DNA from: Candidatus Jacksonbacteria bacterium RIFCSPLOWO2_02_FULL_44_20
GTDB taxonomy: Bacteria; Patescibacteriota; Patescibacteriia; UBA9629
Direction of reading: 5' to 3'
Assembly: GCA_001818155.1 (NCBI GenBank)
Contig: MHJU01000036.1
Span: 3,615-67,614 of the forward strand
DNA: 64,000 nt
The notes under the pieces are model-generated. The model saw only the letters and a program-made list of their open reading frames with translations, was not told the origin of the DNA and did no database searches. Shown one piece after another: positions 4,900 through 64,000 of this stretch; the stretch's first letter is position 1; the number at the start of each line of letters is the position of its first letter. The translations under genes were made by a program, and so were the position numbers.

Positions 4900-5478
4900 A
4901 TGAAAAATATCTGGCGCGCGATTACAATTCAGAATAAACGATTTGAAGAGGAAAGGATGAAAGCGCAGACATTGGCAGAAACGCTTCAGCGCGAAGCAAA
5001 GAAAAGCGTTCACCTTCTAGTGCATCGGCGTCTTCTAAACGTATCGGAGAAACTGCGTTTATTGAGAGAAGAGGTTGCGTGTTTGCTTGGAATGGTAAAA
5101 AAAAATCCGCTTCTCCATCATGCGCGCGCGATTGACGATGGGTTGGAAGAGTATGCGGAGTTTGTTGCGCTTGCGGTATTTTTAGAGAAAAATTCCAGTA
5201 TGGCGGCTTTCGTAAAGGGTATTTCATCCGAAGCTCTTATCGGCGGCATTGCGGACGCCACAGGAGAACTTGTGCGTATCGCGCGCGCAAAAATGGACGA
5301 GAAAGAAGGTGAAAATATCCGCGAGCATATCATTTCCGTGTACCATCATCTGCTTGATCTGCCGATTACAAGAAACGGAAAATTACGCAGTAAAACCGAG
5401 GATGTGCGTAGAAATTTATTGAGAACCGAGGAAATTTTGTTTGATATACGCATACGGGCACATAGCTCAGCTGGTTAG
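4900..5478 (+). CDS. Translin-family-like protein, tentative.
   Basis: IGGIADATGELVRIA and KLRSKTEDVRRNLLRTEEILFDI resemble translin signatures (GL.D..GEL.R and LR.K.d....l.k.E). The last 22 nt of the ORF overlap tRNA-Val, so the C-terminus is uncertain. Confidence 0.4.
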   Translation: MKNIWRAITIQNKRFEEERMKAQTLAETLQREAKKSVHLLVHRRLLNVSEKLRLLREEVACLLGMVKKNPLLHHARAIDDGLEEYAEFVALAVFLEKNSSMAAFVKGISSEALIGGIADATGELVRIARAKMDEKEGENIREHIISVYHHLLDLPITRNGKLRSKTEDVRRNLLRTEEILFDIRIRAHSSAG

Positions 5479-5532
5479 AGCGCTACGTTGACATCGTAGA
5501 GGTCCGTGGTTCGAGCCCACGTGTGCCCACCA
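5456..5532 (+). tRNA. tRNA-Val(GAC)
   Basis: Acceptor gggcaca/tgtgccc, anticodon stem ctacg/cgtag, loop ttgacat, T-loop ttcgagc, encoded CCA. Confidence 0.85.
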
Positions 5533-5547
5533 AAATTTTCCGCTTAC

Positions 5548-5623
5548 GGGCATATAGCTCAGCGGTTAGAGCACCACTCTTATAAAGTGGGGGTCGATGG
5601 TTCAAATCCATCTATGCCCACCA
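5548..5623 (+). tRNA. tRNA-Ile with a UAU anticodon (tRNA-Ile2-like body)
   Basis: Acceptor gggcata/tatgccc, anticodon stem ccact/agtgg, loop cttataa giving anticodon TAT. GTTAGAGCA in the D-arm and GGTTCAAATCC in the T-arm resemble ileX-type tRNAs. Confidence 0.7.
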
Positions 5624-6301: not shown

Positions 6302-6634
6302 ATGGCAACTTTTGATGATTTCCAAAAACTAGATATCCGCGTTGGCAAAATTGTTGATATTGAAGAATTGCCAAATGCGAAATATACCACGCACAAATTG
6401 ACTATTGATTTTGGTAATGAAATTGGTAAAAAAATTTCTGGCGCTCGCGTCATCCGATATACTAAAGACCAGTTGATCGGAAAACTTGTGCTTGGCGTTG
6501 TGAATTTGCCTCCGAGACAAATTGGGGAATTAAATTCTGAAAGTTTAACGCTCGGTGTACCCGACGCAAAAAAAGAATGTATCTTGATTTCGCCTGATAG
6601 TGTTGACGCTGTGATAGGTGGTAATCTTTATTAA
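6302..6634 (+). CDS. csaA: tRNA-binding protein (CsaA/Trbp111, EMAP/Myf-like domain).
   Basis: MATFDDFQKLDIRVGKIVDIEELPNAKY...KLTIDFG is the canonical tRNA-binding OB-fold N-terminus. I set the start at the ATG at 6302. Confidence 0.7.
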   Translation: MATFDDFQKLDIRVGKIVDIEELPNAKYTTHKLTIDFGNEIGKKISGARVIRYTKDQLIGKLVLGVVNLPPRQIGELNSESLTLGVPDAKKECILISPDSVDAVIGGNLY

Positions 6635-47675: not shown

Positions 47676-47823
47676 CAATGTCGCTTAATACAGTATACTG
47701 GATTCCAGTCGTCTACAAAGACGGCTATCTTATTTACTAGTAGAAATAGGTTCTTTGAAAATTGCATATAATCAATACAGCTATCTAAAAGTGATAGTCC
47801 TCAATTTGAAAGTTTTAGTATTT

Positions 47824-49365
<1,542 letters not shown>

Positions 49366-49617: not shown

Positions 49618-49694
49618 GGGCGCGTAGCTCAGCTGGTTAGAGCACGTCACTGATAATGACGGGGTCGGAAGTTCAAATCTTCCCGCGCCCACCA
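49618..49694 (+). tRNA. tRNA-Ile(GAT)
   Basis: gggcgcgtagctcagctggttagagca, anticodon stem cgtca/tgacg, loop ctgataa, encoded CCA. Confidence 0.85.
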
Positions 49695-53210: not shown

Positions 53211-53231
53211 TTTCTTCGTACTGCCCACAGT

Positions 53232-56200
53232 ATGAAACAGTTTCGCAAAGCCATAGTACTTACTCTTTTGATTGGATTAATTTTCCAACAGTTTTTTTTA
53301 TTGCCTCAAGCGCTTTTAGCGCAAGAATCCCCGGCGCCGGAAATTTCATCTGAACCGGATCAGACGCAACTCACTCCAGCTGAAGCGCAGGAATCGGAGC
53401 AACCAGAGGCTCCTCCTGTAGAAACCGAGCCACAGGTGGAACCAGCGCCGGAATCCGAGCCGACTGTGGAAGTAGCGGAGCCATCGGAACAAAGAGAATC
53501 AACGGAGCAGACAGAGCCGCAAACTGTTCCGGAAGAACAAACAGTTGAGGAGCCTGTTCTACCAGTCGCAGAGGAAGATCAAGTATCTACTGAACCAATC
53601 CCGACAGAACCGGAGCCTCAAATTATTGAGGATCTCTCATCAATCGGAGCAAAAGAAGGACTTGCGGGAGAAAGCGAGCCACAGACAATCACTGTTTTGC
53701 AGGAGGACGAAAATATAACAGTTGTAGGAAAAATAGCCGGGGAAACGGTTGCGCAATCAAACCGCGAAGGTCTTGGTATTTTGAAAGGCGATATTGCCGG
53801 CCGCCCTGAAGAGGTGTTTTTCTTTGAGGAACAGGGTGTAAAAAAACAGGTGGTTGATCTTTCAGAACTTATTAAAAAAGAACAAGCGCCTGCTCCTGAA
53901 ACGCCAAGCGCGGGAGAGATAAGCGACAGCGCCGTTACAAAGGGCGGCGAGGGAATTGTTTTGGAAGAGGTTGTAAAACGCGAAGAGAGCGGGAACGCGG
54001 TTTCCGTGAACGTTGAAGATATTACAGTCGTAAAAAAAGAGGAAGGATTTTTTCAAAAATTGTCTGATACTATTTTTGGCGGTAAAAAAGATAACCCAAA
54101 AGAAGAGCGCGTACAGCTTGAGGTTACAAGCAATGGAGAAGTTAAGCTCATTTCAGCTGAAAATGTTGAGGGCGATGAAAAACTGGAAATTGAGTATTCG
54201 TACGGATCGTACACAAAATCATTTGAAGTTTCGTTTGTTCCGATGACTCTTGACGCGCCCTTTACAGTGTCCGAGTTCAGCGAAGGCGAGCTTGAGAAAG
54301 CCGTCAATCGCGTTTTAGATGTGGAGGCGGAAGCTCCCGAGCCGTTGCAATCGGAAGCGATAGAGCCGCAAACATCCGAACCGCCGGTTGAAACGATTCC
54401 AGTCATAGAACCGATAGAACCGACAGTGTCTGAAATTATTCCAGAGCAATCTCCTGAAACTGTTCCTCTTATTACAGAACCTGTAGAGCCGCCTGTTTCA
54501 GAGCCAACTCCGCCTATAGAAGATGTGATTGAATCACAACCAGCGGTTGCTCCGTCCGAGGAGCCGCATGTAACTTCTGAAACTGTACAGTCCGCGCCTC
54601 CGGAAGATGAGGTGATTGTGCCGGTAGAGCTTCCGGAAGAAGGCGCAGTTCAAGGAGCGCGAGTTCAAAATTTTGATACCGGTGAAGGCACGGGAATCGT
54701 CAACCGCATTAAGCGATTTTTCCAGAGTTTTCTCTTTGGAGCCGCACCGGCACGCGCTCAAAACGGCATGCAAACAGTGCAGACATTTCAGGTAAAACTG
54801 AAAACCGCGACTGTTAAAGGCGAACAAACGTTTCAAATTTTACCAAACGGACTCGTGTATCTCTATCACGGTTCATCTATTGAAGCGATCTCGCGTCCCC
54901 GATTTCAGTATCAGGGAACTAGCGGCTGGAATGATTTTGCAATCACCAACGCCTCGCAAGGAACGCAGACAACTGGCGCTACCGCAACGCATCTTATCCA
55001 ATATACAACGTCCGAAGGAGATATTATCACCTTGAAGTATGATTTCGGACTTCAAAATAATCAGATTTTCAAAAAACAAACATGGACGATTTCCGGCGAC
55101 AAAACCGTGCGCGTTTTATGGGAGACGTTGTTTCGCGCCGGTTCTTTTGCCCAGAAAGAGCTCGCGGTTTCTACCCTAAATGAGAGCGGATCCCGCACAC
55201 GGCTCTACGGCGACATTGTGATTGACACGTCTGACTATAAAGGAAACGTCGCGATTGAAGAGGACAAACCGGCAAATATTGTCCGCGTGTATTTTGAAAA
55301 AGACGGGGCGCAAGCGCCGCTTACGATTGATCCCAGTTTTTCGGTTGTAACAGGAGATCAGTTTATTGAAGTTGTGACGCCGGATTTCCAGTCGCCGGGT
55401 TCAGCGACGGGTTGGAAAATTCGCTTTAATCGCTTAAAAGGCGGCGGCATAGATCAGTATTTTAGCAATTCCCTGAACAATGGGGGAACAAATATCTCTT
55501 CATCAACAAAGCCTATTTTCAACATCGTATATACGAGCAACATTTTCAAAGATCTTTCACAAACGCAAGCGTACAGTATGCAGGTGATTGAGCGTGGCGC
55601 AACTCGTTTGCGGGTGCGGGCGCTCGCAAATCTCGGAAACGATGCGCTCACTATAACATATACAGTTTATTTAGCCGGGCAGATTTTTATAGACATTCAG
55701 AACGTTCTTGAAGACGGCTCTATTGCCGGGCAAAACGGCGTGTTTCAACTCAATCAATCTTATGCGGGGTACCAGCAAGGATACGACATAACCGACGCCG
55801 CGCATAATGCGGTTGCGATAGACTCCATAGAAGCCGACACCGCGCTTGTTCCGTTTGTCGCAAGCGATGTCGCCGGAGTTGCGACCAATGTAAGTGAAGA
55901 AGAAGAGGATTATATTCAGGTTGCGCTCGGCACCGCGATAAACGCGATGTACGCAAACGGAAACACCGCGACGAACCAGTTTCTCTTGTCGCTCACCCCT
56001 CCTTACGAAGGAGGGGCTGGGGGAGGTTTAGCTTTAGCCGCCCTCGCCGCCGACTACCAATCCCCGGACTCCCTTACACCATTCACCATCGGCGCGTATC
56101 AAGGGTATAACAATAAAGAAGGCGCGTATGAGATGACGGCAATAGAAGATAAAATTAAGTTTCAGATGAATGGGGCTGATACGCCGCGTTTTTACCCGAT

Positions 56201-59200
56201 TTTTAAGATTGCCAATTGGCAGAACGCGAACCTCGCCGCTGTGTACGCGGAACTTGACAACGGAGAAATTAAGCAGGATTTGGATTATATTCTCACTTTT
56301 GTAAACGGAGACCCAAACACGCACACGTTAATTTTCCAATATCTTGAGCCCTTAACCGACGCGCGGACGTTTTACATAGACCCGACATGCACGTCAAACG
56401 CGACCGGAAACTGGTCAGCGGCCGGCACATGGCAGAGCTGTGATCCGAATACCACTGACAGTGTAACGATAGCAAGCGGGCATGTTGTAACGATGAATCA
56501 GGACGTAACCGTTGACACTATTTATATCCAGCAGGGAACATTGAAGTTTGATACTACTGCGCGGACGCTTACAGTTAATGAGGACGGGGTAAGCAATACC
56601 GGGTTAATTCAGGTGGGCAATGCGGCCGGAAGTAACGATGCTACTTTTGAGTGCACTGGGCCAACAAGCGGCGTGCATACCATTAAGCTCGTTACTAACG
56701 CCGGCACCAACCCAAGCGTCGGCATAGAAGTTGAAACCGACGGACTTTTGAATATCCAAGGCACATCGTCTGCAAACCAAAACTGCGTTGTTAAAAACGA
56801 CGGCGTAACCACCGACGGCACCAAAAACGGCTACATCTACCTCAAAGACGGCTCCGAGACGCTTATTAAAAACGCGGAGATTTCTTATTTAGGGACAAAC
56901 GCAACTACAAAATACGGAATATCCGCGGTGGACGTTGACGGCAACACGAGCGGAGAAGGTTTGATTATTGAGGGTTCGAACGTTCACAATAACTACATCG
57001 GGCTTGCATTTGAAAGCGGGAGCACATATCTTGCCGCCAACCGCAATGTGTTTCGTTTAAGTTCCGACGACGCTATTAAAAGCCTTGCCACAACAGATGA
57101 TTTTAATATAATCACAAATAACGATATTTACTCAAACACAGGAGATGGAATAGACGTAGCCGGGGATGCTTGGACAATGTATGGAAATGCCGTTAATGGA
57201 AACGTGATCGGGATTGCTGTGTCAGGCGGCCCGAACTATATTTATAATAATACACTTAATGGCAACTCAAACGACGGCATAGCAGTAACTGGCGGAACCG
57301 GCACAGTGATTAAGAATAATCTTATTACGATTAACAGCGCTGAAGGAATTGATAACGACGGCACTTCAACAACAATCTCCACAAATTACTATTACAATAA
57401 TACAACCGCTACCTGCACAACCGCAGGCGCCGCGTGCGGAGACACAACCGCAACAGGCTCCGGCACAATTCCAAACTACGTCTCCACAACTGGCGGGAAT
57501 GCAGATTTTCTCTACGTCTCCTCGGACTCCGCCGCGCTTGGGCCCGGGCTAAACATTTTTGCAGACACAGCGCCAGGCACAGTAAACGTGGGCGGACGGC
57601 TTGATTACGTTAAAAACACAACCGACAACGAAGAGTTTAACTGGCTCCAGCAGGCGCACGACGATTCCTCGCTTGGCGCAGGGGATACGGTTACCGCGTA
57701 TGCGGTGAATGTCGCCTCGGACACCGTCGCGGGAAATATAACAGAAGTCAGCTCCATCGCCTCCACATATTACACAGTAAGATTTGACGTCGCCGAGGCC
57801 ACGGTTGTCGCAGACAACGACCACGAAGGATTTTACGCCTACTTCACTTCCGGCGCAAATCGCGGCAGGTATTACCTCATAACCGACTCCGATGAAAACA
57901 CCACCGACACCCTCACTGTTTTAAGCGAACAAGCCGCAACCACCTTCACCGCCGGCGACGGGTTTACGGTGGTGGATCGGGTGTATGCGAGGGCGGGAGG
58001 GGGCGCAAACTGTACCGGGAATACCGCAAATCTGTGTCTTCTCGCAGACGGCGGAGCGTCTACGCTAATTACCTGGAATACAAATGGCACAGTTATTGTT
58101 GACGCTCAAAATACACGCACATACGGGATATACTTAAACCGTTCTAACCATGTGCGGCTTGATGGATTTATTGTTCAAAATGCTGTTACTCATGGTATTA
58201 GCGGAAATACAGCCACAACCCCTGTACACCTTGCGAATATTGTGGCCGCTTATAACACGAGGGACGGTGTTAGTGTTAGTTGGAATGGGTGGGTGATGAG
58301 CGATACGATAACTTTCAGCAATGGATGGGCGGGCATAGGAAGCGCGGCGGGCGACTTTGACAGTTCGTATGTTATCAACCCAGTGAGTTTTCGTAATTCA
58401 CAAAATGGAATTTCCAACGGACAGGGACCGAATAACACAGTGGTCGGAGCAAAGTTGTTCGGCAATACTTCAAATGGGTGGATTGTTGATAAAAATTCAG
58501 GCGGAACCAGTATAAAGAACTCATTCGTATTCTCAAACCCCAATAACATTAAATTTTCTGATTGGGCGAGCAACACAAACAATAAAGTTGTCAATAATAC
58601 GGTTGTTGGCGGGGCGACTGACGGTATTTTCATTGTCGCCTCAATGCCCGCGGCAGTAATACGGAATAATGTCATTGCGTATAATGCCCAAGATGGGTTG
58701 GATGATGATAGCGGAGCTACTTCGGAGACATACAATTATTTCTATGGCAATGGGGAGAACATAGATGGAGGCGGCGCCATAGGCACTGGGTCTCTTTCCG
58801 TCACCGACCCCGGGTTTTACAGCGAGGTGTCTGCTGTTGTGCTTGCCGCCGGGGCAACCACGACTACGGTTGATGTAACCGGCACGCAGGCGTGGACGGA
58901 AAACCAGTGGGTTGGAGCGGGGCTGACATTCACCGGCGGGAGTTGCAACATCGCGGCAAACACCTGGTTTGGGATTACATCAAATTCCAAAGAGATGCTG
59001 TTTTTCGCTCCAGCCGCATCAGCCGTGCCAAACACAAGTTGTACAGGAGTAATTACAAACTTCTACATCGCAAACACCACCTCCGCGACCACGCCCTTAG
59101 GCCAAGGCGCACGCCACGACGGCGCAACCGAGCCCGGCACCGTAAACATGGGCGCGCGGCTGGGGTATGTATTAAATGACGACCAAGCAAGCGCCGACAT

Positions 59201-62200
59201 CAAGCACAATTGGTTACAAGACGCCCACGACCACGCGAATGTAAACGCCGGAGATACGATCACAACTTACACGGTAAACGAGGTTTCAGACACGCTCGGC
59301 TCAACCCTTACCGACAACGGGCCCTATCTTACTCTTGACGCCGCAACCTCAACAACCATTGCCGCGGCAGACGATTACATCGGCTTTTATATGTACATGA
59401 CCTCTGGAACAAACAGAGGAAAGTATTATCTGATAATTGATTCCACGACAGGTACCCCCGACACAATCTCCATCGCCGCGACCGACGGCACCTCGCTTAA
59501 CACGACCGGCTTCAACCCCGGCGATGGGTTTACGATTGTGGATCGGGTGTATGCGAGGGATTCTGGCGAGTCAACAAACTGTACCGGAACCGAGAATTTA
59601 TGTCTTTCAAAAGCAGGCAACTCAAACGGCACTGCGCCTATTACATGGACTACTTCTGGCGCTGTGGTTATTGATTCTGCCGGAGTGCGAAGTTACAGCA
59701 TAGATATTGCCGGCGCGGACTACAATATAGTAAACGGTTTTACGGTTATCGGCGGACTTTTAGACGGCATTCGGCTTACGAATGTAAACAACAGCAGGTA
59801 TGCTAATTTAACCGTTGCGAGAAATACTGGAATGGGCATTAACGACGGCGCGGGCAATCAAGATAATTTATTTGAAACAAACACGGTATTTTCAAACACA
59901 AGCCATGGAATAGGCGGTATCAATCAATCTTTTGTAAACGGCAATACGGTGTACGGAAACTCTGGACGGGGGATTGATGTAAGTGGGACGAGCGCGGTGT
60001 ATAATAATAATCTTTACGCAAACGCGGATAGCGTATTTATGGCCGGCGCGGACAACACGATTCGCGGAAATAAGATTTTGCGAGACACGCAAAGCGGAAT
60101 AGTTTTTTCAGGGAGCGCAACATCAAGCGCTATTACGAATAACCTTTTGCTTGCTAATACCACAAACGGAATTGCCGCAAGTTCGTATTCCGGAAGCAAT
60201 AATGCTATTCGCAATAATATCATCACCAATACCGGTACGGGCATCAATCTATCCCTTCACGCGACCGATGTTTCTAATTTTAATTATTTTTACAGTAATA
60301 CAACGAATGTTGTCGGCGGTGAAGGGGCGCAATCACTTCCCGCAAGCGGCGGGGCTGGAGGAACTGATCCGAATTATAGTTTTGATGTTTCCGCGACAAA
60401 TGTTACCGCGGGGTCAACCGGTGAGATAGATTTAACAGGCACTCAAAACTGGACTGCCAATCAATGGGCAGGGTATGGTTTAACTTTTATTGACGGCACG
60501 AGCGTGTGCGATTCAGATGTCAAAAATAAATGGTTTGGCATTACCGCAAACGGAGCCGAATGGATTGCGTACTCGCCAACGCCTGCTGATGCTTCCACCA
60601 TTACTAATTGCGCGGCAAAGATTACTAATTTTGCGCTTCCTTCCGTCTCTACCACCACGCCTTTGGGGGGCGGGGCAAACCATGCGGGCACAGCGGCGAA
60701 AGTGAATATGGGGACGCGGCTTGAGTATGTTGAGAACAGCGACGGCACGCGAAATAACGGAATTCAAAACGCCAATGACGCGGGCGCGACAGGCGCGGGA
60801 GACACCTTAACCGTGTACGCGGTTGACGAAGTAACAAGCGGCACGGTTTTTTCCGCCGCGGACAGCGGGCCTTATGTTACCCTTACGCTCTCAACAGACA
60901 GCATCGCCGCAAACGATGACTATATCGGCATGTATATGTATATGACGAGCGGCACAAATGCGAGCAAGTACTATCTGATCATTGATTCGGCAACAGTTGC
61001 AGGACCAGCCGACACAATCGCAATTAACACTTCTGCAACTACCGGCTTTGCCGCAAGCGATACGTTTAATATAATAGACCGCGTGTACAGCACAACCGGC
61101 TATACGTCTGGCGCCACAACAGCAAACGCGCGTTTCACCAAAGACGGCTCATCTGGAAGCCCAATCACATGGAATGCGGTTGCAAGTAACACAGTTTTGA
61201 TAGACGCATCAGGGAAGACATACGGTTTTTACGGCGATACAGACGGTACAAACGGGCTAAAATATAACAATTTTCAGACCGCCGGCACATTCACTTTCTT
61301 AAACGTCTCAAACGGCGCGAACCTGTATCAAGGCGGATTTGGGTTTAATACCACGAGCGTTGTTCACGATCACATTAACTGGGGAGGCGCAACTGACGCA
61401 AGCACTATTTTTACAGGCCAGTATATTTCAAAAATAATTGATATGACGCAGGCGGATCCGGTGTATGGAAATTTGGTGTGGACGCAGAACGCAACAGCCG
61501 GCACGAGCGACGTTGTTATGCATACAAGAAGTACGGACACCGCAAACGGAAGCGACATCGGCACAAAAACGTTTGTAGGTCCTGACGGAACCGCAAACAC
61601 TTCGTATTCCACCGAAACCGGCGAGGCCATCGCGGATGCGCATAACACGCATCAATATTTCCAGTATCGCGCCACACTCACCACAACCTCAAGCAATACG
61701 CTTCCGGAACTCACCTCGACAAGCGTGAGCCAGGAAGCAGAATTAACATCCTCTCCTTTTAACACGCAGGCCGCGGAAACATTGTTTAACGATGTTGTCT
61801 GGACAGAATCCGACGGCGCAAGCGGCACCATTCCATCCGGCACAGACGTTCGCATTCAGGTTCGTAGCGCGCCGGATTCAAGCGGGGCCCCTGGCACATG
61901 GACATCGTGGTGCGGGCCAAACGACGGAGTCTCGGGAAGCTGTACTTCAACAACTTACTTTACGGACTCAACCGGCGCGACCGAGGCACTTGACGATATT
62001 TTGATTGACGCGACAAGCGATCAGTGGATTCAGTATAAAATTTTATTTATCCAGCCCTCAACAAATAAGCCATATTTGAATGATATTACCTTGCAATACG
62101 TTGTAAACACCGCTCCAACGGTCAGTGTTACGTCCGCCTCGCAAGGATCGGACGGCGTCGTAACGGTTGCGTATTCGCTTTCTGACTCGGAAGAGCAGGG

Positions 62201-64000
62201 AGAGGACGGAGCCGTTGTTGCGGGGCTGTACTATGAACGCGCTGTTACAATCGCAGAGGATTTGGATATTTCGGAAACCGATATTGATGTATCAAGCGCA
62301 TCAACGCTTCCCGCAAGCGGGACGATTTTGGTTGACAATGAAATTATTTCTTACACCGGAAAGAGCGGAAATACGCTCACAGGCGGCACACGCGCCGCAG
62401 AGTCGTCAAAGGCGGCTGTCCACTCAAACGGAGCGAACGTGTGGGTGAAGGCGGTAACGGTTTCTGGAAACGTTGGCACAATTACCGGCGTTAACGGAAC
62501 TCCTTCAGCGAAAAGTGTGACATGGACCGCGAATACCGATATAGACGGCGTGTACGATGCGACGTTTTCAATCCGCGTTGCCGGAAACGACGGAAACGCG
62601 GCAAATCAAGTTGGATACGCAACGTCCTCTGATTTCGTGCTGGATACAAAGGATCCGATTGTTGATACGTTCACGGTTGACGCAAGCGCAAATTCCGGCT
62701 CAACTGATGTTACCGCAACGCTTACCATTACAAAAACCGATGATTCAACCGCGACTATGAGCATTGCAAATGATTCAGGGTCAGTCGGGACAACGTACAG
62801 CGCCTTTGCGTCTCCGACCACCTGGTCGCTTGACACAATAACAAGTACGCAAAAAACAGTGTATCTTAAACTCAAAGACGCGAAAGGCAATACATCTACG
62901 ACCGCAAGCGCGAAAACTCCGGTAACGCCCACTAGTTTGAGTGTTGTTGATACCTCAAACGTCGGCACCGGCGACTATCGTCTGTTCCTCTCGTGGAAAA
63001 AAGCCGAAGCGACTGACGTTCCGGCGTTTTCTTCATACAAAGTGTACCGCAAAACCGGAAGCGGCGGCGCTTATTCCGGCTCCGGCGTTTTTACGCTTGT
63101 GTCAACAATCAGCGCTATTAACACAAACTACTTTATCAATACAAACATTGACGGGACCAATCCGATTACGCAAGATACGCAATACGATTATTTTGTGATA
63201 ACGCAATCCACTGACGGAAACATTTCATACAGGTCAGGCGGCATCTGCGGTATACCAAACGGAGCGGCCGATTGCGCTGAAGGAGGCGGAGGCGACGACA
63301 CAACAGCTCCGACTATCATATTTACAGAAACGAGCGGAGAAGGAACGCCATCTAATTCGCGCGTTACAATTACCTTCCAGACTTATGATTTGCCCGCGGC
63401 GCCAGGCACAATTCGCGACGCGAAAATTGATTACGGCACATCAAGCGGCGTGTTTACGCTTTCGCAGGGCATCCCGACAGCAACCAGCGGCACAAGCGCG
63501 TCCGCCCCGGCAACGCGCGCCGTTACTCTTGAAGGGCTCTCCGGAAGCACGACGTATTATTACCGTATCAACGCGCGAGACGCCGCGGGAAATATCGGAA
63601 CAGACGACAACAGCGGAGCCGGCTATACGTTTACAACAACAAACGAGCCCGGATCAATCATTTCAAATGTGCAGTCAATTCTTATTAATTCCACAACGAT
63701 TAAAATTACATGGACAACAGACAAAGTCGCAAGTTCGCAGGTTGTATACGCGACAAACTCCGGGCTTACCGGATCAACTAGTTTTCCGGTTTCCCCGAGC
63801 GATTCAGACACCAATCATGAAGTGCAGATTACTGGCTTGACGGCCGGGACAACGTATTATTATAAAGCGAGGTCGGTTGACGCAAACAACAACACCAGCG
63901 ACAGCGCGGTGTACAGTTTCACAACAGCGGACACGGCGGCGCCTGCAATATCTCAAGTTGCCGCAACAAACGTTACCCACAGTTCCGCGACCATTACCTT
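53232..64000 (+). CDS. Giant secreted/surface protein, partial: at least 3,589 aa with no stop before the window end. Signal peptide, then an E/P-rich disordered spacer, then a parallel beta-helix (PbH1/NosD-like) repeat region, then Ig/FN3-like C-terminal domains.
   Basis: I read frame 0 (codon starts divisible by 3) continuously from the ATG at 53232 to 64000 with no stop, which agrees with the ORF track showing no frame-0 breaks. N-terminus MKQFRKAIVLTLLIGLIFQQFFLLPQALLAQ. EPxPE-rich low-complexity to about 54700. Repeated NxxIxxNxxxGI beta-helix turns, for example NNDIYSNTGDGIDVAGDAWTMYGNAVNGNVIGIAVSGG. FN3-like C-terminal units (GLSGSTTYYYRINARDAAGN; ITGLTAGTTYYYKARSVDANNN). Confidence 0.7.
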   Translation, partial: MKQFRKAIVLTLLIGLIFQQFFLLPQALLAQESPAPEISSEPDQTQLTPAEAQESEQPEAPPVETEPQVEPAPESEPTVEVAEPSEQRESTEQTEPQTVPEEQTVEEPVLPVAEEDQVSTEPIPTEPEPQIIEDLSSIGAKEGLAGESEPQTITVLQEDENITVVGKIAGETVAQSNREGLGILKGDIAGRPEEVFFFEEQGVKKQVVDLSELIKKEQAPAPETPSAGEISDSAVTKGGEGIVLEEVVKREESGNAVSVNVEDITVVKKEEGFFQKLSDTIFGGKKDNPKEERVQLEVTSNGEVKLISAENVEGDEKLEIEYSYGSYTKSFEVSFVPMTLDAPFTVSEFSEGELEKAVNRVLDVEAEAPEPLQSEAIEPQTSEPPVETIPVIEPIEPTVSEIIPEQSPETVPLITEPVEPPVSEPTPPIEDVIESQPAVAPSEEPHVTSETVQSAPPEDEVIVPVELPEEGAVQGARVQNFDTGEGTGIVNRIKRFFQSFLFGAAPARAQNGMQTVQTFQVKLKTATVKGEQTFQILPNGLVYLYHGSSIEAISRPRFQYQGTSGWNDFAITNASQGTQTTGATATHLIQYTTSEGDIITLKYDFGLQNNQIFKKQTWTISGDKTVRVLWETLFRAGSFAQKELAVSTLNESGSRTRLYGDIVIDTSDYKGNVAIEEDKPANIVRVYFEKDGAQAPLTIDPSFSVVTGDQFIEVVTPDFQSPGSATGWKIRFNRLKGGGIDQYFSNSLNNGGTNISSSTKPIFNIVYTSNIFKDLSQTQAYSMQVIERGATRLRVRALANLGNDALTITYTVYLAGQIFIDIQNVLEDGSIAGQNGVFQLNQSYAGYQQGYDITDAAHNAVAIDSIEADTALVPFVASDVAGVATNVSEEEEDYIQVALGTAINAMYANGNTATNQFLLSLTPPYEGGAGGGLALAALAADYQSPDSLTPFTIGAYQGYNNKEGAYEMTAIEDKIKFQMNGADTPRFYPIFKIANWQNANLAAVYAELDNGEIKQDLDYILTFVNGDPNTHTLIFQYLEPLTDARTFYIDPTCTSNATGNWSAAGTWQSCDPNTTDSVTIASGHVVTMNQDVTVDTIYIQQGTLKFDTTARTLTVNEDGVSNTGLIQVGNAAGSNDATFECTGPTSGVHTIKLVTNAGTNPSVGIEVETDGLLNIQGTSSANQNCVVKNDGVTTDGTKNGYIYLKDGSETLIKNAEISYLGTNATTKYGISAVDVDGNTSGEGLIIEGSNVHNNYIGLAFESGSTYLAANRNVFRLSSDDAIKSLATTDDFNIITNNDIYSNTGDGIDVAGDAWTMYGNAVNGNVIGIAVSGGPNYIYNNTLNGNSNDGIAVTGGTGTVIKNNLITINSAEGIDNDGTSTTISTNYYYNNTTATCTTAGAACGDTTATGSGTIPNYVSTTGGNADFLYVSSDSAALGPGLNIFADTAPGTVNVGGRLDYVKNTTDNEEFNWLQQAHDDSSLGAGDTVTAYAVNVASDTVAGNITEVSSIASTYYTVRFDVAEATVVADNDHEGFYAYFTSGANRGRYYLITDSDENTTDTLTVLSEQAATTFTAGDGFTVVDRVYARAGGGANCTGNTANLCLLADGGASTLITWNTNGTVIVDAQNTRTYGIYLNRSNHVRLDGFIVQNAVTHGISGNTATTPVHLANIVAAYNTRDGVSVSWNGWVMSDTITFSNGWAGIGSAAGDFDSSYVINPVSFRNSQNGISNGQGPNNTVVGAKLFGNTSNGWIVDKNSGGTSIKNSFVFSNPNNIKFSDWASNTNNKVVNNTVVGGATDGIFIVASMPAAVIRNNVIAYNAQDGLDDDSGATSETYNYFYGNGENIDGGGAIGTGSLSVTDPGFYSEVSAVVLAAGATTTTVDVTGTQAWTENQWVGAGLTFTGGSCNIAANTWFGITSNSKEMLFFAPAASAVPNTSCTGVITNFYIANTTSATTPLGQGARHDGATEPGTVNMGARLGYVLNDDQASADIKHNWLQDAHDHANVNAGDTITTYTVNEVSDTLGSTLTDNGPYLTLDAATSTTIAAADDYIGFYMYMTSGTNRGKYYLIIDSTTGTPDTISIAATDGTSLNTTGFNPGDGFTIVDRVYARDSGESTNCTGTENLCLSKAGNSNGTAPITWTTSGAVVIDSAGVRSYSIDIAGADYNIVNGFTVIGGLLDGIRLTNVNNSRYANLTVARNTGMGINDGAGNQDNLFETNTVFSNTSHGIGGINQSFVNGNTVYGNSGRGIDVSGTSAVYNNNLYANADSVFMAGADNTIRGNKILRDTQSGIVFSGSATSSAITNNLLLANTTNGIAASSYSGSNNAIRNNIITNTGTGINLSLHATDVSNFNYFYSNTTNVVGGEGAQSLPASGGAGGTDPNYSFDVSATNVTAGSTGEIDLTGTQNWTANQWAGYGLTFIDGTSVCDSDVKNKWFGITANGAEWIAYSPTPADASTITNCAAKITNFALPSVSTTTPLGGGANHAGTAAKVNMGTRLEYVENSDGTRNNGIQNANDAGATGAGDTLTVYAVDEVTSGTVFSAADSGPYVTLTLSTDSIAANDDYIGMYMYMTSGTNASKYYLIIDSATVAGPADTIAINTSATTGFAASDTFNIIDRVYSTTGYTSGATTANARFTKDGSSGSPITWNAVASNTVLIDASGKTYGFYGDTDGTNGLKYNNFQTAGTFTFLNVSNGANLYQGGFGFNTTSVVHDHINWGGATDASTIFTGQYISKIIDMTQADPVYGNLVWTQNATAGTSDVVMHTRSTDTANGSDIGTKTFVGPDGTANTSYSTETGEAIADAHNTHQYFQYRATLTTTSSNTLPELTSTSVSQEAELTSSPFNTQAAETLFNDVVWTESDGASGTIPSGTDVRIQVRSAPDSSGAPGTWTSWCGPNDGVSGSCTSTTYFTDSTGATEALDDILIDATSDQWIQYKILFIQPSTNKPYLNDITLQYVVNTAPTVSVTSASQGSDGVVTVAYSLSDSEEQGEDGAVVAGLYYERAVTIAEDLDISETDIDVSSASTLPASGTILVDNEIISYTGKSGNTLTGGTRAAESSKAAVHSNGANVWVKAVTVSGNVGTITGVNGTPSAKSVTWTANTDIDGVYDATFSIRVAGNDGNAANQVGYATSSDFVLDTKDPIVDTFTVDASANSGSTDVTATLTITKTDDSTATMSIANDSGSVGTTYSAFASPTTWSLDTITSTQKTVYLKLKDAKGNTSTTASAKTPVTPTSLSVVDTSNVGTGDYRLFLSWKKAEATDVPAFSSYKVYRKTGSGGAYSGSGVFTLVSTISAINTNYFINTNIDGTNPITQDTQYDYFVITQSTDGNISYRSGGICGIPNGAADCAEGGGGDDTTAPTIIFTETSGEGTPSNSRVTITFQTYDLPAAPGTIRDAKIDYGTSSGVFTLSQGIPTATSGTSASAPATRAVTLEGLSGSTTYYYRINARDAAGNIGTDDNSGAGYTFTTTNEPGSIISNVQSILINSTTIKITWTTDKVASSQVVYATNSGLTGSTSFPVSPSDSDTNHEVQITGLTAGTTYYYKARSVDANNNTSDSAVYSFTTADTAAPAISQVAATNVTHSSATIT
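57560..61250 (+). repeat. Three in-frame tandem copies of a module of about 1.55 kb (about 520 aa) inside the giant ORF.
   Basis: Recurring blocks at about 57570, 59130 and 60700 (TAPGTVNVGGRLDYV, TEPGTVNMGARLGYV, AAKVNMGTRLEYV) and at about 57820, 59380 and 60930 (GFYAYFTSGANRGRYYLITDS, GFYMYMTSGTNRGKYYLIIDS, GMYMYMTSGTNASKYYLIIDS, each followed by DGFT.VDRVYAR). Confidence 0.55.

Follow-up and report, generated by a model that had tools for sequence, protein, structure and literature searches.

An isoleucine tRNA gene with a genomically encoded UAU anticodon, tRNA-Ile(UAU), lies within the 64,000-nt stretch of Candidatus Jacksonbacteria DNA that was analyzed (the window) and is likely, with a probability that we place at about 0.7, to be the organism's lysidine-independent decoder of AUA and part of a lineage-wide trait of the CPR, of the type known from Mycoplasma mobile. 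Candidatus Jacksonbacteria belong to the Parcubacteria, within the CPR (Candidate Phyla Radiation; Patescibacteria), and the organism is an ultra-small bacterium. Proteins encoded in the window are identical to those of RIFOXYA2_FULL_44_7 (Candidatus Jacksonbacteria) and GW2011_GWC2_44_17 (Parcubacteria group), and the setting is groundwater. The tRNA gene is 100% identical in 4 of 4 independent assemblies of the species, and the observation is real, far beyond chance. Related copies compared across the CPR indicate that the family has been kept and that the gene is not a recent accident.

Both ARAGORN and Rfam called the gene (Table 1), the former with the anticodon (tat) at position 34 and the latter with 76.9 bits against RF00005 (gathering threshold 29, E = 4e-15), the top tRNA score of the window. 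Its minimum free energy fold is a canonical cloverleaf of -27.6 kcal/mol (z = -3.5 versus shuffles). The sequence reads GGGCAUA-UA-GCUC-AGCGGUUA-GAGC-A-CCACU-CUUAUAA-AGUGG, followed by GGGUC-GAUGG-UUCAAAU-CCAUC-UAUGCCC-A-CCA, and because a 5-bp stem (CCACU/AGUGG) encloses the 7-nt loop (C32 U33 U34 A35 U36 A37 A38), the anticodon register is unambiguous. The genomic UAU anticodon that the earlier note had read on this tRNA-Ile, at exactly these coordinates, is thus borne out by both programs and by the fold. The gene also has the Ile-type elements A73, C4-G69, U12-A23, A37, and A38, which are established identity elements for E. coli IleRS, and by these E. coli-type elements the tRNA can be assigned an isoleucine identity. 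Because position 34 is T, not C, the C34 needed by TilS is absent and the tRNA offers no substrate for lysidine formation.

Table 1. RNA genes of the window that bear on isoleucine decoding
Feature	Position	Strand	Source and remarks
tRNA-Val(GAC)	5456..5532	+	ARAGORN; 15 nt upstream of tRNA-Ile(UAU)
tRNA-Ile(UAU)	5548..5623	+	ARAGORN; Rfam; proposed AUA decoder, 76 nt with encoded CCA
16S rRNA	47823..49364	+	Rfam SSU, 1415 bits
tRNA-Ile(GAU)	49618..49694	+	ARAGORN; Rfam, 72.7 bits; 3' of 16S rRNA gene

The body of the tRNA had been described as ileX-like, a description that is not specifically supported, because ileX is no closer than the other tRNAs compared: E. coli ileX shares 71% identity with it, and E. 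coli ileV, the organism's own tRNA-Ile(GAU), and tRNA-Val(GAC) share 74% each. Identity reaches 80% to a Chloroflexota CAU tRNA, which was itself selected by the pattern used to collect the CPR copies, and Chloroflexota relatives with C34 hint at a CAU ancestor for tRNA-Ile(UAU), the other candidate being a GAU ancestor.

AUA usage, which the earlier note had singled out for checking, proved to be high: in 47 non-overlapping ORFs of the window, 306 of the 1506 Ile codons (20%) are AUA, a codon as common there as AUG (16.5 vs 16.0 per 1000 codons). Its meaning was examined in alignments of RecA, GyrA, PNPase, and S15 to the orthologous E. coli proteins. Opposite 27 AUA codons, the E. coli residue is I in 12 cases, V in 8, L in 2, and M in 0, a profile that is the same as those of AUU and AUC; of 57 AUG codons in the same four proteins, 24 are aligned with M. 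By this comparison, AUA is an often-used isoleucine codon in housekeeping genes, and because it is frequent and aligned with I, V, or L, never M, it means Ile and needs a decoder.

ARAGORN found eight tRNA genes in the window, and no CAU-anticodon tRNA was among those detected in its 64,000 nt. The second isoleucine tRNA of the window, tRNA-Ile(GAU), is the major isoacceptor for AUU and AUC; together with tRNA-Ile(UAU) it therefore covers the three Ile codons without a CAU-type tRNA. In a Pfam search, neither TilS nor IleRS was found among approximately 20 window ORFs scanned, and neither was found in the 8.5 kb upstream of the window. Two comparisons were extended to 726 kb of CPR DNA surrounding the same tRNA, both being weak tests that cover genome parts only: a tblastn search with E. 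coli TilS gave no match, and no Ile2-like tRNA was present among 15 CAU tRNAs, which consist of repeated pairs of initiator-like and elongator-Met-like genes. A search with E. coli TilS of a 5.8-billion-protein collection was uninformative for the CPR, as the best 120 matches were all from Enterobacteria.

Published family counts are more telling. In Supplementary Data 1 of Meheust et al. 2019 (PMC6744442), which gives genomes per protein family for 2321 CPR genomes and 1198 other bacteria, TilS (K04075, flagged 'depleted') occurs in 123 CPR vs 866 non-CPR genomes. In the same table, EF-Ts is found in 1983 vs 1046 genomes and ribosomal protein S10 in 2138 vs 1054, so that the ratio of TilS to EF-Ts genome counts is approximately 6% in the CPR vs approximately 83% in other bacteria. 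MnmG (5 vs 897) and TruA (5 vs 958) are scarcer still, and TsaD (1942 vs 995), Sua5 (1303 vs 933), and MnmA (1495 vs 948) are widespread (PMC6744442). By these counts, the CPR are depleted in TilS, MnmG, and TruA and have retained TsaD and MnmA. Among the genomes of the dataset is the complete-scoring Jacksonbacteria genome RIFCSPLOWO2_02_FULL_44_20 (PMC6744442), which has the exact RecA sequence of the window. The suggestion that a UAU tRNA is an alternative to the lysidine system agrees with this strong depletion of TilS in the superphylum.

The spread of the tRNA was assessed with a very strict pattern, AGAGCNNCACTCTYATAAAGTGNNGGTCNNNGGTTCRANTCC, which comprises the anticodon arm and the T arm and leaves position 34 free (C or T), in a collection with one genome per species. 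It matched 93 loci, a count of strict-pattern matches and not a prevalence within the CPR, of which 91 have T34 and two, both from Chloroflexota, have C34. Explicit CPR names are attached to 56 of the T34 loci, the named groups being Parcubacteria/Paceibacterota, Komeilibacteria, Falkowbacteria, Kuenenbacteria, Uhrbacteria, Kerfeldbacteria, Portnoybacteria, Nomurabacteria, Woykebacteria, Saccharibacteria, and 'Patescibacteria group'. A further 22 T34 loci are titled 'uncultured Gammaproteobacteria', labels that look wrong because the proteins encoded beside the tRNA share 54-94% identity with those at CPR-labelled loci; L153, which is among the 22, is approximately 90% identical to the window.

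Across an alignment of 90 CPR copies, U8, the D stem, A73, and the T loop are invariant, as are U12-A23, A37, and A38, and C4 and G69 are at least 90% conserved. The cloverleaf is paired in 99.9% of cells, both-sided (compensatory) changes occur at 7 of 7 acceptor pairs and at three T-stem pairs, and the covariation score is 0.423, where shuffles score 0.105 and slid controls no more than 0.079. The anticodon arm of the family (C/U27-C-A-C-U31, loop CUUAUAA, A39-G-U-G-G43) is nearly frozen. Its invariance in this sample is partly by construction, because the search pattern fixed the arm; the positions that the pattern left free (26, 27, 43, and 44) show little variation, and because the same arm is found in lineages that differ at every acceptor pair, the conservation argument carries weight. 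The tRNA family is thus deeply conserved and has undergone compensatory evolution.

The chromosomal surroundings are those of core genes, with IF-2, RbfA, Lgt, S15, PNPase, and PGK encoded around tRNA-Ile(UAU), and the composition of the region is ordinary. Between tRNA-Val(GAC) and tRNA-Ile(UAU), no site resembling a promoter or a terminator was found, and the former is probably a co-transcribed partner of the latter. At 37 CPR loci, a single 8-kb block contains both tRNAs, which are in many cases no more than 100-300 nt apart. In one of the four assemblies of the species (GCA_001000815.1; L001:9700-10010), tRNA-Val(GAC) is without 25 nt comprising the T arm and 3' acceptor strand, the gene being intact in the other three; this gap may stem from faulty assembly, or the strain may have a broken gene. 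At five or more loci, a ValRS gene lies no more than a few kb from tRNA-Ile(UAU). In two CPR ValRS genes that adjoin the tRNA cluster (L141:2200-5442 and L194:1979-5197), an inserted domain of approximately 170 aa of the histidine-phosphatase/phosphoglycerate-mutase family is present mid-enzyme. An ORF of the Translin family, which is unusual in bacteria, occupies window positions 4900-5478, its 3' end overlapping the start of tRNA-Val, and a 110-aa tRNA_bind protein (PF01588, Trbp111/CsaA-like; window 6302-6634) is encoded two genes downstream of the tRNA pair.

If tRNA-Ile(UAU) is the sole AUA decoder, as we infer, IleRS would charge it, accepting U34, and AUA would be read directly through an unedited U34-A pairing. 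The partner tRNA-Ile(GAU) would read AUU and AUC, so that all Ile codons would be covered without tRNA-Ile2(CAU) or TilS. Position A37 probably carries t6A, because t6A enzymes are retained in the CPR, and U34 would be without a cmnm5/mnm5-type modification (xm5U34 being unlikely), because MnmG is essentially absent from the CPR (5 genomes). By analogy with M. mobile, the context of the anticodon arm, the ribosome, and a competing tRNA-Met might together curb misreading of AUG; rejection of AUG by such means has been shown experimentally only for M. mobile (PMC3575796).

According to this proposal, AUG read by U34 would need to be rejected at the decoding site of 16S rRNA. The residues G530, A1492, A1493, C1054, and C1400 are the same as in E. 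coli. In the 530 pseudoknot, a compensated change to U505-A526 replaces the near-universal G505-C526, within the 515F primer site, and position 967 is A; no causal link of these 16S changes to AUA/AUG discrimination is shown. On the 3' side of the 16S gene are tRNA-Thr, tRNA-Ile(GAU), a short-chain dehydrogenase gene, and tRNA-Phe, with no 23S gene there. Elsewhere on the contig, a methyltransferase of the Trm5/TYW2 type (PF02475; L307:1802-2533), the archaeal/eukaryotic type of m1G37 enzyme, is encoded upstream, approximately 7 kb before the window begins.

An adaptation of IleRS to U34 would presumably accompany such a tRNA, in the form of Arg or Lys at the position of E. coli W905 or of an IleRS2-type enzyme. 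By tblastn, no IleRS was found in the 726 kb of CPR loci, the matches to E. coli IleS being rejected as ValRS or LeuRS genes. A metagenome scan used an alignment of IleRS1 and IleRS2 (MupA), and its best 80 loci were those closest to E. coli IleS; W905 is kept in 76 of 81 aligned IleRS1 rows (the best 80 loci plus E. coli), and none of these best 80 loci gave a sign of CPR origin. One IleRS1 (L306:3968-6775), on a contig of 38% GC, has Arg at the wobble-contact position equivalent to E. coli W905 (CDRCRR). Another locus, L284, was considered as a CPR IleRS locus and found no support, its contig encoding ClpP, Lon, and ThiE.

Two explanations retain the tRNA as an AUA decoder in a different capacity. 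Were tilS and tRNA-Ile2(CAU) also present in the genome, the UAU tRNA would merely supplement AUA decoding. Dual systems of this kind exist, having been proposed for Lactobacillus casei/plantarum, Cyanothece, and Ferrimonas (PMC3575796), and the TilS family member held by 123 CPR genomes counts against a sole decoder (PMC6744442). Such redundancy nevertheless appears improbable in light of the low TilS/EF-Ts ratio of the CPR and of the lack of TilS and of Ile2-like CAU tRNAs in the window and in the 726 kb of CPR DNA, and a tRNA retained for so long in the various CPR classes, with compensatory changes, is better explained as essential than as spare. A more plausible alternative, if still an unlikely one, is that a putative enzyme modifies U34 (or U36) to a nucleoside of restricted wobble, comparable to pseudouridine, and thereby excludes AUG, in place of discrimination with a bare U34. 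Without modification U34 normally reads both A and G, the eukaryotic tRNA-Ile(UAU) has a modified anticodon containing pseudouridine (PMC3575796), the frozen anticodon arm could be the recognition site of an enzyme, and many CPR proteins are without known function. Against this stand the near absence of MnmG and TruA from the CPR and the fact that an unmodified UAU anticodon works in M. mobile (PMC3575796); no candidate enzyme was identified.

The remaining two explanations would remove the tRNA from isoleucine decoding by the core translation machinery, and both were rejected. An accessory tRNA of phage or mobile-element origin, outside the core translation set, is conceivable in principle because viral tRNA-Ile(UAU) genes are very common, with at least 120 broad-pattern matches in viral contigs. 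Among the matches listed, however, the CACU/AGUG 4-bp core occurs in only 2 of 120 viral copies, whose anticodon stems are diverse, and the CPR 27-43 pair in 0 of 120, and the CPR pattern is matched by only six viral contigs. These differing viral stems, together with the core-gene neighbourhood of ordinary composition and the tRNA-Val(GAC) companion in 37 CPR loci, make a phage origin highly improbable. Least credible of all is a reassignment of AUA, as is the case for this codon in many mitochondria, or charging of the tRNA with a different amino acid, for example Met. Code changes are known in the CPR, where Gracilibacteria and Absconditabacteria have altered the meaning of UGA; this reading was discarded on the alignment profile, in which AUA stands opposite I, V, or L and never M in four conserved proteins, and on the presence of the Ile-type elements. 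The six viral contigs (IMG/VR; L070, L309-L312, and L121), five of them near-identical, encode a tRNA-Ile(UAU) with the CACU/AGUG core and G27-U43 or A27-U43 at the 27-43 pair, and might be phages of CPR-related hosts.

Lysidine-independent decoding by tRNA-Ile(UAU), the favored reading, has precedents. Closest is tRNA-Ile2(UAU) of M. mobile (PMC3575796), likewise a bacterial tRNA-Ile with a genomic UAU anticodon in an organism that keeps AUA as Ile, and likewise from a reduced-genome lineage that is poor in tRNA-modification enzymes and in which TilS is missing or depleted. The M. mobile system, which features a Trp-to-Arg change in IleRS, an unmodified U34, and a discriminating ribosome (PMC3575796), is a recent event in one species, in contrast to the spread of the trait across a superphylum in the CPR. 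Bifidobacterium and Neorickettsia, lineages without tilS, also have a UAU tRNA-Ile and rely on a horizontally acquired, eukaryote-type IleRS2. The canonical tRNA-Ile2(CAU) with TilS, exemplified by E. coli ileX, shares the assignment of AUA to Ile, a CU-NAU-AA loop, and A73, and differs from the window gene in having C at position 34, not T, and in a body to which the window tRNA is no closer than to tRNA-Ile(GAU). Nanoarchaeum equitans, Korarchaeum, and the eukaryotic cytoplasm likewise decode AUA directly with UAU and no modified C34, and Nanoarchaeum is, as are the CPR, an ultra-small symbiont; these belong to other domains, in which eukaryotes have anticodon pseudouridines and agmatidine is the alternative of archaea. 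The tRNA-Ile(UAU) genes of phages resemble the window gene in anticodon and general tRNA form, but they lie in a phage context and vary in their anticodon stems, whereas the window gene lies on a chromosome and has conserved synteny across the CPR.

Earlier counts recorded 9 species without tilS (2013) and 19 species with a tRNA-Ile(UAU) gene (2014), the tRNAscan-SE 2.0 survey found bacterial tRNA-Ile(UAU) in 17 genomes, and a 2026 preprint refers to 'rare cases'. Papers up to 2026 treat bacterial tRNA-Ile(UAU) as a rare exception and tilS as essential and conserved in approximately 98% of bacterial genomes. The rarity asserted in the earlier note thus holds for the classical literature (17-19 genomes) and fails for the CPR, where approximately 90 species-representative genomes from many classes carry the gene. 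In searchable papers, nothing was found that ties the CPR or Patescibacteria to lysidine, tilS, AUA decoding, or tRNA modification, and, although this kind of tRNA is already known, its CPR-wide spread appears to be unreported in that literature; the depletion of TilS in the CPR is already in a published supplementary table (PMC6744442).

A decoding route held to be rare may therefore be the norm in a very large bacterial branch, and if most CPR use the UAU route, statements that the tRNA is 'rare' and that tilS is 'conserved, essential' need large qualification. The odds seem to us about even that lysidine-free AUA decoding is the ancestral, near-universal state of the CPR, with a frozen anticodon arm, without TilS, MnmG, and TruA, and probably with a bare U34. 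If ancestral, it could be a relic of a primitive UAU system, such as that proposed for LUCA by Taniguchi et al. (PMC3575796), or the result of a single, very early replacement at the CPR root. The CPR would also constitute a natural system for how the ribosome and an apparently unmodified U34 separate AUA from AUG, a question that is testable in cultured Saccharibacteria, which have the same tRNA. Further bearings are on the proposal that TilS could serve as a pan-bacterial drug target, on tRNA-based checks of MAG completeness, in which a missing Ile2 tRNA would be expected and not a gap, and on models of AUN codon box evolution.

Some minor observations concern database labels and the far end of the window. 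The MAGs titled 'uncultured Gammaproteobacteria', which include a 915-kb 'chromosome' (OZ246414.1), are L128, L139, L143, L149, L152, L153, L157, L160, L164, L180-L182, L184, L191, L194, L196, L201, L202, L207, L209, L213, and L217. The same CPR tRNA is also found on two 'Nanoarchaeia' contigs and one 'Pirellulales' contig (L199, L214, and L215), all three of which were probably mis-binned. At window positions 53211-64000 on the forward strand (+), an ORF of at least 3596 codons, preceded by a gene for a 727-aa beta-propeller protein, continues past the window end.
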